DNA from: a virus
Lineage: Duplodnaviria; Heunggongvirae; Uroviricota; Caudoviricetes
Virus record (IMG/VR): IMGVR_UViG_2851971941_000002
Reading direction: 5' to 3' (one strand)
Length of the DNA stretch: 39,096 nt
The notes under the pieces were generated by a model, which ran no database searches, had not been told where the DNA came from, and was given only the letters and a program-made list of their open reading frames with translations. The translations under genes were made by a program, and so were the position numbers. Below, in pieces: positions 25,514-25,834 of the stretch (its first letter is position 1; every line of letters starts with the position of its first letter).

Positions 25514-25629
25514 ATGAATAGCCAATGTTTCGCCGCCGACAAAAGGCCGGGACGTTAAATGTCAGAAATCAGGCTCACGGGGTAATTTAACGACAAAGCA
25601 CGGAGTTGATGCTCCCCGCAAGCCTGGAA

Positions 25630-25654
25630 TAAAAAAGCCAGCATGTAGCTGGCA
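25630..25654 (-). terminator. rho-independent terminator in the Q-S intergenic region (tR'-like)
   Basis: On the minus strand, GCCAGC-TACAT-GCTGGC followed by TTTTTTATTCC, about 180 nt downstream of the Q stop and about 120 nt upstream of the holin start. Confidence 0.55.
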
Positions 25655-25834
25655 ACAGAGGGTTAAGCAATATCAACTCAACAGCTGAAGACACCCTGGC
25701 TGGGGTAGGTTGGAAGGCTACTCACCGTTCAGAAACAGAAAAGCCCAAGGCTTTAAACCTCGGGCTTGAATTTGGATTACTGCCAGTGCGTACAACATTG
25801 GCAAAATATCAGATTTACATAAAATATATGATTT

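Follow-up and report, generated by a model that had tools for sequence, protein, structure and literature searches.

Late transcription in phage lambda depends on the arrangement pR′/qut/6S/tR′, in which a constitutive promoter follows the antiterminator gene Q, a Q-binding element lies in the promoter spacer and RNA polymerase undergoes a σ70-dependent pause (PMC4914094, PMC7547250), and in which a short terminated RNA is made and read through in a Q-dependent manner (PMC7547250). RNAs of this short, terminated kind have been documented from the pR′ of lambda, 21, phi80, 82 and P22 (PMC7547250), and the pR′ of phage 82 is one of the model templates for σ70-dependent pausing and Q antitermination. 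On wild-type phage 82 pR′ the transcript starts with AAA. Its pause element resembles a −10 hexamer and includes an extended −10, positions +15 to +17 read GCC, and polymerase pauses at +25/26, where the base at +25 is naturally U (PMC5001585). Q-binding elements sit between the −35 and −10 hexamers, and that of phage 82 has been placed within −31 to +30 (PMC4914094). Here we analyse the spacer between Q and the holin gene (positions 25,514 to 25,834) of a Caudoviricetes sequence of 39,096 nucleotides, IMG/VR record IMGVR_UViG_2851971941_000002, referred to below as the window. This region very probably controls the late genes of a lambdoid prophage of the phage 82 type, with a pR′ promoter, a promoter-proximal pause, two terminators and Q-dependent read-through.

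The identity of Q carries much of this assignment. An earlier note on this DNA, made from its letters and open reading frames (ORFs), had spoken of a non-lambda Q and proposed a comparison with phage 82. Both suggestions were sound: the window Q belongs to PF06323, whereas lambda Q belongs to PF03589, and it is identical to phage 82 Q (X92588.1) at 223 of 229 positions (97%). The genes on the minus strand run ybcN/ninB-like, ninE, ybcO, rusA, ylcG, Q, holin, lysozyme and Rz/Rz1, with bor on the plus strand in the same neighbourhood, and the phage 82 record shares the order upstream (ybcN, ninE, ybcO, rusA, ylcG, Q). Given the identity of Q and the common gene order of the nin region, the locus is effectively the late region of phage 82, and the defining features of the 82-type control region that its sequence can settle (the Q family, the promoter with an AAA start and the pause element) are present in it.

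The promoter and the sequence that follows it match the phage 82 descriptions closely. A promoter scan recovers TTGCAA and TATATT across the end of Q, and setting +1 at 25816 reproduces all four of the published pR′ descriptors: AAA occupies +1 to +3 and TG-a-TATTTT +6 to +14, 25802-25800 reads GCC, and 25792 is T. The −35 hexamer TTGCAA is unchanged in phage 434, whose Q is annotated as Q82-like, in the Salmonella prophage Gifsy-1, and at the very end of the phage 82 record. The −10 hexamer is constant across 15 leader variants and reads TATACT in phage 434, and the TGnTAT of the pause element is conserved in both phage 434 and Gifsy-1. A 19-nt promoter core was found in 73 of the 80 viral contigs that encode a close relative of this Q; a scan of genome contigs with the same core was uninformative, its 14 matches being almost all chance hits in unrelated phyla.

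Across the window, phage 434 and Gifsy-1, the common block is TTGCAAAACTGGATTAAAA...TATAyT...AAAT.TG.TAT, and downstream of it the leaders diverge. The relatives of phage 82 Q carry three leader types behind the same promoter: that of the window, that of phage 434, in which a terminator lies at about +30 to +58, and a third that diverges just past the pause site. Finding three leaders behind one promoter places a module boundary directly after the region in which Q is loaded. The first 13 bases of the promoter spacer (25845-25829) are invariant across all three types, and we regard the spacer as the candidate Q-binding element of the 82 type.

Two other signals overlap this promoter. On the strand opposite Q, TTGCAATATCTTGC (window 25846-25859, plus strand) fits the CII-binding consensus TTGC-N6-TTGC and overlaps the pR′ −35 hexamer, and the phage 434 record annotates a CII site and the −35 of paQ at the homologous place. 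The only other CII-consensus match in the window, at 31336-31349 on the same strand, could be pRE; two matches in the window are not above chance (2.6 expected). The best σ70-like match of the area is also on the plus strand (TTGGCA, 16 nt, TAAAAT; 10/12; window 25798-25825), where it lies antisense to the initial transcribed region of pR′ and faces the 3′ end of Q. It could be a chance complement of the pause region or an antisense promoter.

The earlier note had placed the late promoter elsewhere, at TTGCCA (25804-25799), 17 nt, AGTAAT (25781-25776), just after the Q stop codon. In that reading transcription would start just before the hairpin at 25767-25741, which would act as leader or qut, and the hairpin at 25653-25637 would be the single tR′. 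The hexamers do have the correct 17-nt spacing, and a Roberts laboratory plasmid of 82 pR′ with a '−35-like mutant' indicates that a −35-like hexamer has been recognized in the initial transcribed region of phage 82; at a guess, TTGCCA may be that sequence. As a promoter, however, the pair has G at the critical second position of the −10 and fails the scan criteria, its hexamers vary in close relatives (CTGTCA in contig L047, AGTATT in L029), and it is missing from the phage 434 and Gifsy-1 versions of the control region, which share the upstream promoter. Furthermore, it falls at +13 to +41 of a transcript whose start fits the published pR′ features, and a transcript begun from AGTAAT would have the 12-bp terminator hairpin at its very 5′ end, where neither a pause nor a Q-loading site could be fitted in. 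We therefore consider this placement very improbable. The promoter supported here is found 35-50 bp upstream of that site, across the Q stop codon (TAA, 25837-25835, minus strand); its −35 hexamer (25851-25846) is inside the Q reading frame, beyond the upper coordinate of the interval that had been considered.

In a scan of 24500-27000 compared with shuffled sequence, eight terminator-like sites were found against 2.2 ± 1.4 in the shuffles, and half of these eight are within the spacer on the minus strand. The hairpin at 25767-25741, which occupies +50 to +76 of the transcript, folds together with its UUUUCUGUUU tail at −18.4 kcal/mol (z −4.67) and is terminator-like by the scan; its stem of 12 pairs, 6 of them G-C, followed by this tail qualifies it as an intrinsic terminator, which we call terminator 1. 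Its pairing is kept in L031 and L030 through G-C to G-U to A-U changes. The hairpin at 25653-25637 with its U6 (−11.9 kcal/mol, z −3.81) is likewise terminator-like by the scan and qualifies as an intrinsic terminator, its stem having 6 pairs, 5 of them G-C, followed by UUUUUUAUU (terminator 2). Both hairpins had been pointed out earlier, at about 25742-25767 and at 25630-25654, and both are real and correctly placed; it is their roles that change. The first, taken for a leader or qut hairpin ahead of tR′, is the first terminator itself, and the second, taken for the sole and strong tR′, is a downstream terminator that belongs to a holin-proximal cassette.

The leader that terminator 1 would close has a simple layout, namely a 5′ hairpin, an A/U-rich single strand (UAAUCCAAAUUCA) and a terminator with a U tail. 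The 5′ hairpin, leader hairpin 1, appears in both the minimum free energy and the centroid folds, does not on its own exceed shuffled sequence (z −1.65), and is the counterpart of the first helix in the Rfam isrJ model. In one relative of phage 82 Q (L056, 2780-3360), terminator 1 is separated from a degenerate holin-leader element (described below; 20.8 bits here) by an insert of about 550 bp that is low in G+C and resembles a moron. This locus lacks terminator 2 and the segment that joins the two terminators in the window, and its terminator 1 has a U tract disrupted to GGGCTTATTC.

Terminator 1 sits only 68 nt past the Q stop codon and would halt any unmodified polymerase coming from upstream, and it might thus serve mainly to end the early-right transcript that carries Q rather than a pR′ leader. 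This we judge improbable, since a conserved 82-type promoter and pause element stand between Q and the terminator, and since the equivalent hairpin in Gifsy-1 ends IsrJ although the gene upstream of it is anrP and not Q. Polymerases modified by N and coming from pR would pass such a terminator in any case, which also counts against a role in ending the Q operon. The two roles are compatible with each other and not mutually exclusive.

The leader itself is related to the small RNA IsrJ. The Rfam isrJ model (RF01393) matches the leader with an E value of 0.0048 in a 2.5-kb search and 0.00031 in a 161-nt search, and it aligns over its full length (1-75) with both helices in register and its terminator helix on terminator 1; in a scan of the whole window at gathering score no Rfam family was returned. 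The true IsrJ of Gifsy-1, an sRNA known from experiment, scores 100.3 bits and lies directly behind the same promoter, Q-binding and pause block as in the window (91.5% over 47 nt). It has the same RNA layout, with a 5′ hairpin, CCAAA..AAUUCAAGCC and a terminator, whereas both hairpins differ in sequence from those of the window leader. The Q of Gifsy-1, AntQ, is 69% identical to the window Q. Gifsy-1 carries a C4-like antisense RNA/IsrK, orf45 and anrP between Q and the promoter (L002, 685-1608), which the window does not have, and homology to the window sets in with the final base of the stop codon of anrP (TGA-TTGCAAAAC). IsrJ, about 74 nt long, is reported to be strongly transcribed in lysogens under every condition (PMC7067206), which fits the leader of a constitutive pR′. 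In Gifsy-1, then, the terminated pR′ leader under AntQ would appear to be IsrJ itself; we did not find this stated in the IsrJ literature searched, in which IsrJ is treated as an island small RNA (sRNA).

On this basis a mechanism can be put forward in which the identity of Q, the sequence elements, the predicted hairpins and their conservation come from the present analysis, and pausing, Q loading and antitermination from the published work on phage 82. The pR′ promoter (TTGCAA, 17 nt, TATATT) would fire constitutively with σ70 and start at the A at 25816 on the minus strand, after which σ70 would bind again at the −10-like element (TGaTATTTT, +6 to +14) and polymerase would pause at +25/+26. 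Without Q, polymerase would stop at terminator 1 and give a leader of about 80 nt with an IsrJ-like layout, and any polymerase leaking past it would stop at terminator 2 (25653-25637), giving a predicted RNA end near +186. Q made from the early operon would bind its site in the promoter spacer and load onto the paused polymerase, which would then be terminator-resistant, pass both terminators and the 57-nt holin-leader element, and continue to holin, lysozyme, Rz and the rest of the late operon. The outline proposed in the earlier note, a pR′/qut/tR′ arrangement whose short terminated leader is read through when Q acts and not otherwise, agrees with this mechanism. The logic is the same as in lambda, and the dimensions differ: lambda pauses at +16/17 and the 82 type at +25, the first lambda terminator is at +193 and that of the window at about +80, and lambda has about 400 bp between tR′ and S and no holin-leader element.

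Several points weigh against this interpretation. The phage 82 record X92588.1 ends at the Q stop codon, and the likeness to 82 pR′ is therefore a likeness to published descriptions and not an alignment. The start site, the pause and the termination points are predictions from sequence. The U tract of terminator 1 is interrupted (UUUUCUGUUU), which may affect its efficiency, and the isrJ score of the leader (30.4 bits) is below the gathering threshold of 37 bits. We nevertheless hold with considerable confidence that the gap between Q and holin is the already known and well-studied phage 82-type late-gene switch, and what is new here may be limited to the holin-leader element and to IsrJ as a pR′ leader. 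The elements of the region are collected in Table 1.

Table 1. Elements of the Q-holin region and the flanking genes, with positions in the window
Feature	Position	Strand	Details
Q antiterminator gene, phage 82 type	25835..26524	-	229 aa; Pfam PF06323, E 2.6e-93
pR′ −35 hexamer TTGCAA	25846..25851	-	Promoter scan 9/12, 17-nt spacer; inside the last Q codons
Promoter spacer, candidate Q-binding element	25829..25845	-	AACTGGATTAAAA invariant
pR′ −10 hexamer TATATT	25823..25828	-	Promoter scan
Predicted transcription start, +1	25816	-	First A of AAA, 7 nt past the −10
Stretch matched by Rfam isrJ (RF01393)	25740..25819	-	30.4 bits against a gathering score of 37
σ70-dependent pause element	25800..25811	-	TG (+6,+7), a, TATTTT (+9..+14), GCC (+15..+17)
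Leader hairpin 1	25778..25803	-	UGCCA.UGU...GCA.UGGCA; holds the TTGCCA, and abuts the AGTAAT, of the earlier promoter proposal
Predicted promoter-proximal pause	25791..25792	-	+25 (U)/+26; window base 25792 is T
Terminator 1	25731..25767	-	12-bp stem, UAA loop, UUUUCUGUUU; predicted end of the ~80-nt leader
Inter-terminator segment	25654..25730	-	3′ half, from ~25693, is the holin-proximal cassette
Terminator 2	25628..25653	-	GCCAGC/GCUGGC stem, 5-nt loop, U6AUU
Holin-leader stem element, 57 nt	25570..25626	-	Outer helix CAGGCUUGCGGGG/CCCCGUGAGCCUG round a conserved interior
Hairpin by the holin ribosome-binding region	25531..25554	-	−11.8 kcal/mol, z −1.70; alone not significant
Holin gene, LydA-like, PF16083	25208..25525	-	Start TTG 25525 or ATG 25513

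The leader of about 80 nt is probably made constitutively in lysogens, and the question arises whether it acts in trans as an Hfq-dependent sRNA, like IsrJ, StxS and the Pas sRNAs. StxS of the Shiga-toxin phages is a precedent for a pR′ leader acting as an sRNA; it is short, made constitutively in lysogens from an antiterminated late promoter, and ends at tR′ (PMC7547250). The window leader is homologous to isrJ, which is annotated as an Hfq-binding RNA, and its succession of hairpin, A/U-rich strand and terminator suits an sRNA. PasA and PasC, moreover, sit directly upstream of holin genes. The region is matched in 815 of 5,426 complete Escherichia coli genomes, O157:H7 and ST131 strains among them, and kept at at least 99% identity in 680. 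Such conservation, however, possibly reflects just the recent spread of one prophage, and the isrJ score stays below the gathering threshold. StxS itself belongs to another Q and promoter type, differs in sequence, and is processed by RNase E to 74 nt with demonstrated Hfq binding and targets. A trans-acting role of the window leader, proposed from homology and layout, is somewhat unlikely in our view.

The stem sequence of terminator 2 differs and yet pairs in phages mEp237 and UPF_BP1 and in many viral contigs, and the cassette of which it is part stands directly 5′ of holin genes in mEp237, HK225, Gifsy-2, many Klebsiella phages and the P22-like Salmonella phage UPF_BP1; one of the phages that bear it has a reversed portal gene upstream. 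A prophage of E. coli GF75 with a different, Qin-type Q matches our query from position 168 on, at 92.8%. On these comparisons, terminator 2 is part of a separate mosaic cassette that is common to phages with unrelated Q. A related block (..GACATTGCYTTACCCTC..) stands ahead of the terminator in several other phages.

Further observations concern the segment between the two terminators. A block at about 25660-25700 on the minus strand, resembling GAGYTGAYATTGCYTTACCCTC, recurs in L210, L150, L187 and L006, and the block together with terminator 2 could form the body of a processed sRNA, by analogy with PasA and PasC. These RNAs of enteropathogenic and enterohaemorrhagic E. coli prophages are found next to the holin-lysozyme operon, on its upstream side, and each has an intrinsic terminator at its end. 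PasA is cut from a longer transcript and is conceptually like an RNA ending at terminator 2; the likeness drawn here is one of position. In phage 434 the spacer between esterase and holin, equivalent to the PasA/PasC position, holds a terminator and no holin-leader copy. A promoter between the terminators, with which terminator 2 would close an sRNA gene of its own, was also considered and rejected, as neither the scan nor inspection gave an acceptable −35/−10 pair. A small ORF over terminator 2 (GTG, 35 aa, 25694-25587) crosses the terminator without a supporting signal and was set aside as spurious. In Klebsiella phage Mulock (L210), in GZ7 (L215) and in Gifsy-1 (L002), tRNA genes (Asn, Phe, Thr, Arg) lie between the Q-proximal terminator and the holin-proximal cassette; a tRNA search found none in the spacer of the window, in agreement with what had been noted.

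Five to six nucleotides past the U tract of terminator 2, and about 45-57 nt before the holin start, lies the 57-nt holin-leader element. It folds at −24.2 kcal/mol (z −3.94). The outer helix, of 12-13 pairs, encloses an interior that shows conservation in a pattern-selected set and is variable in the distant versions found by BLAST. A degenerate pattern recovers the element in at least 120 viral contigs and BLAST in 54 phage records. With a covariance model (R1, built from 16 sequences), exactly one copy is recovered in the window, at 68.7 bits, and the element is found in 49 of the 80 loci with a relative of phage 82 Q. With the filters off, the same approach found no copy in lambda, in phage 434 or in the part of Gifsy-1 that was searched.

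The surroundings of the element are ordered. A hairpin and T run lie just upstream in 109 of the 120 loci, and in 77 of them a Shine-Dalgarno sequence and an ORF start follow 58-71 nt past the pattern, leading into at least eight unrelated holin-type N-termini. The element occurs in Q82-type, Qin-type and P22-like contexts, at a constant position despite unrelated flanks. In the window a further hairpin lies by the ribosome-binding region of the holin, and relatives carry analogous hairpins that sequester the Shine-Dalgarno sequence. As the element lies after terminator 2, it would exist only on antiterminated transcripts. No Rfam 15 family matches it at E values up to 10 (AgvB, AsxR, Esr41, STnc100, ribozymes and riboswitches included), and literature searches, one for the exact sequences of the leader and one for a holin-leader structure, returned nothing. 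By-eye likenesses to a promoter, an IHF site, boxA, ops and a T-loop were not convincing, nor was a DnaA box on the other strand (TTATCAACA, one mismatch from consensus).

One tentative reading is that the element and the terminator preceding it form a cis-acting RNA motif, not described before, in the late mRNA of temperate phages of enterobacteria, and that this motif would set holin expression or lysis timing. It would do so by protecting the 5′ end with its stem once an RNase has cut the U-rich linker, through translational control together with the hairpin at the ribosome-binding site, or as a protein-binding site. Across the alignment 94.5% of the helix is paired and 4 of its 12 pairs are changed on both sides (15 cells), in an alignment fitted to the model; the compensatory events trace to three or four sequence types. 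No shuffle of 500 reaches its covariation score, and controls with slid partners are at most 45.6% paired. RNAalifold on a MAFFT alignment recovers only 4 invariant CGGG/CCCG pairs, because bulges shift the register; an alignment by covariance model was needed. Given the few compensatory types and an alignment that leans towards the model, the structural evidence is moderate.

A reading to which we attach the same limited credence is that the element has no RNA function and is a module boundary, a joint for homologous recombination between the Q/moron region and the lysis cassettes. Its flanks are indeed mosaic, with different terminators upstream and the many unrelated holin N-termini downstream, and there are few independent compensatory events in its helix. 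In five contigs (L184, L186, L167, L115 and L188), moreover, two copies 0.4-2.6 kb apart bracket inserted DNA, which means that the element may also, or only, be a recombination boundary. Against a purely recombinational element stand the pairing figures just given and the lack of any shuffle reaching its covariation score. The outer helix also stays paired in divergent types (CAGACCCU/AGGGUCUG, CAGGUUC/GAACCUG, GGCUCA/UGAGCC), and the position and orientation of the element relative to the terminator and the start codon (58-71 nt) are fixed. Separately, in L184 and L186, the two contigs that were inspected, unrelated DNA instead of a holin start follows one of the copies, which suggests moron insertion by recombination at the element.

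The remaining observations concern the setting of the region. The stretch is 100% identical to Escherichia phage PhiR47_2. The previously noted length of the Q-to-holin spacer, 321 bp, is borne out by the ends of the ORFs (Q stop 25835, holin ATG 25513); the holin start is ATG in the RefSeq annotation and TTG in the PhiR47_2 record. The 5′ end of the gene (window 25511-25525, minus strand) reads TTG GCT ATT CAT ATG. Related LydA-type holins have a dual-start motif, M-A-K-H/R-M, that includes a basic residue, and read ATG GCA AAG CAT ATG or ATG GCA AAA CGT ATG. With TTG as the upstream start and Ile in place of Lys in the window, the holin/antiholin pair may be weakened or lost.

Recognizing the phage 82 system in this region mainly corrects its annotation, by giving the late transcript a predicted start and two tandem terminators, and this has practical value because the exact region is present in about 15% of complete E. 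coli genomes. The short leader made from such a promoter deserves attention as well, as pR′ leaders of this kind have turned out to be regulatory sRNAs in the case of StxS and, by homology, of IsrJ. And if the holin-leader element does work as an RNA, phage lysis genes would have a control point that is widespread and has so far gone unstudied.

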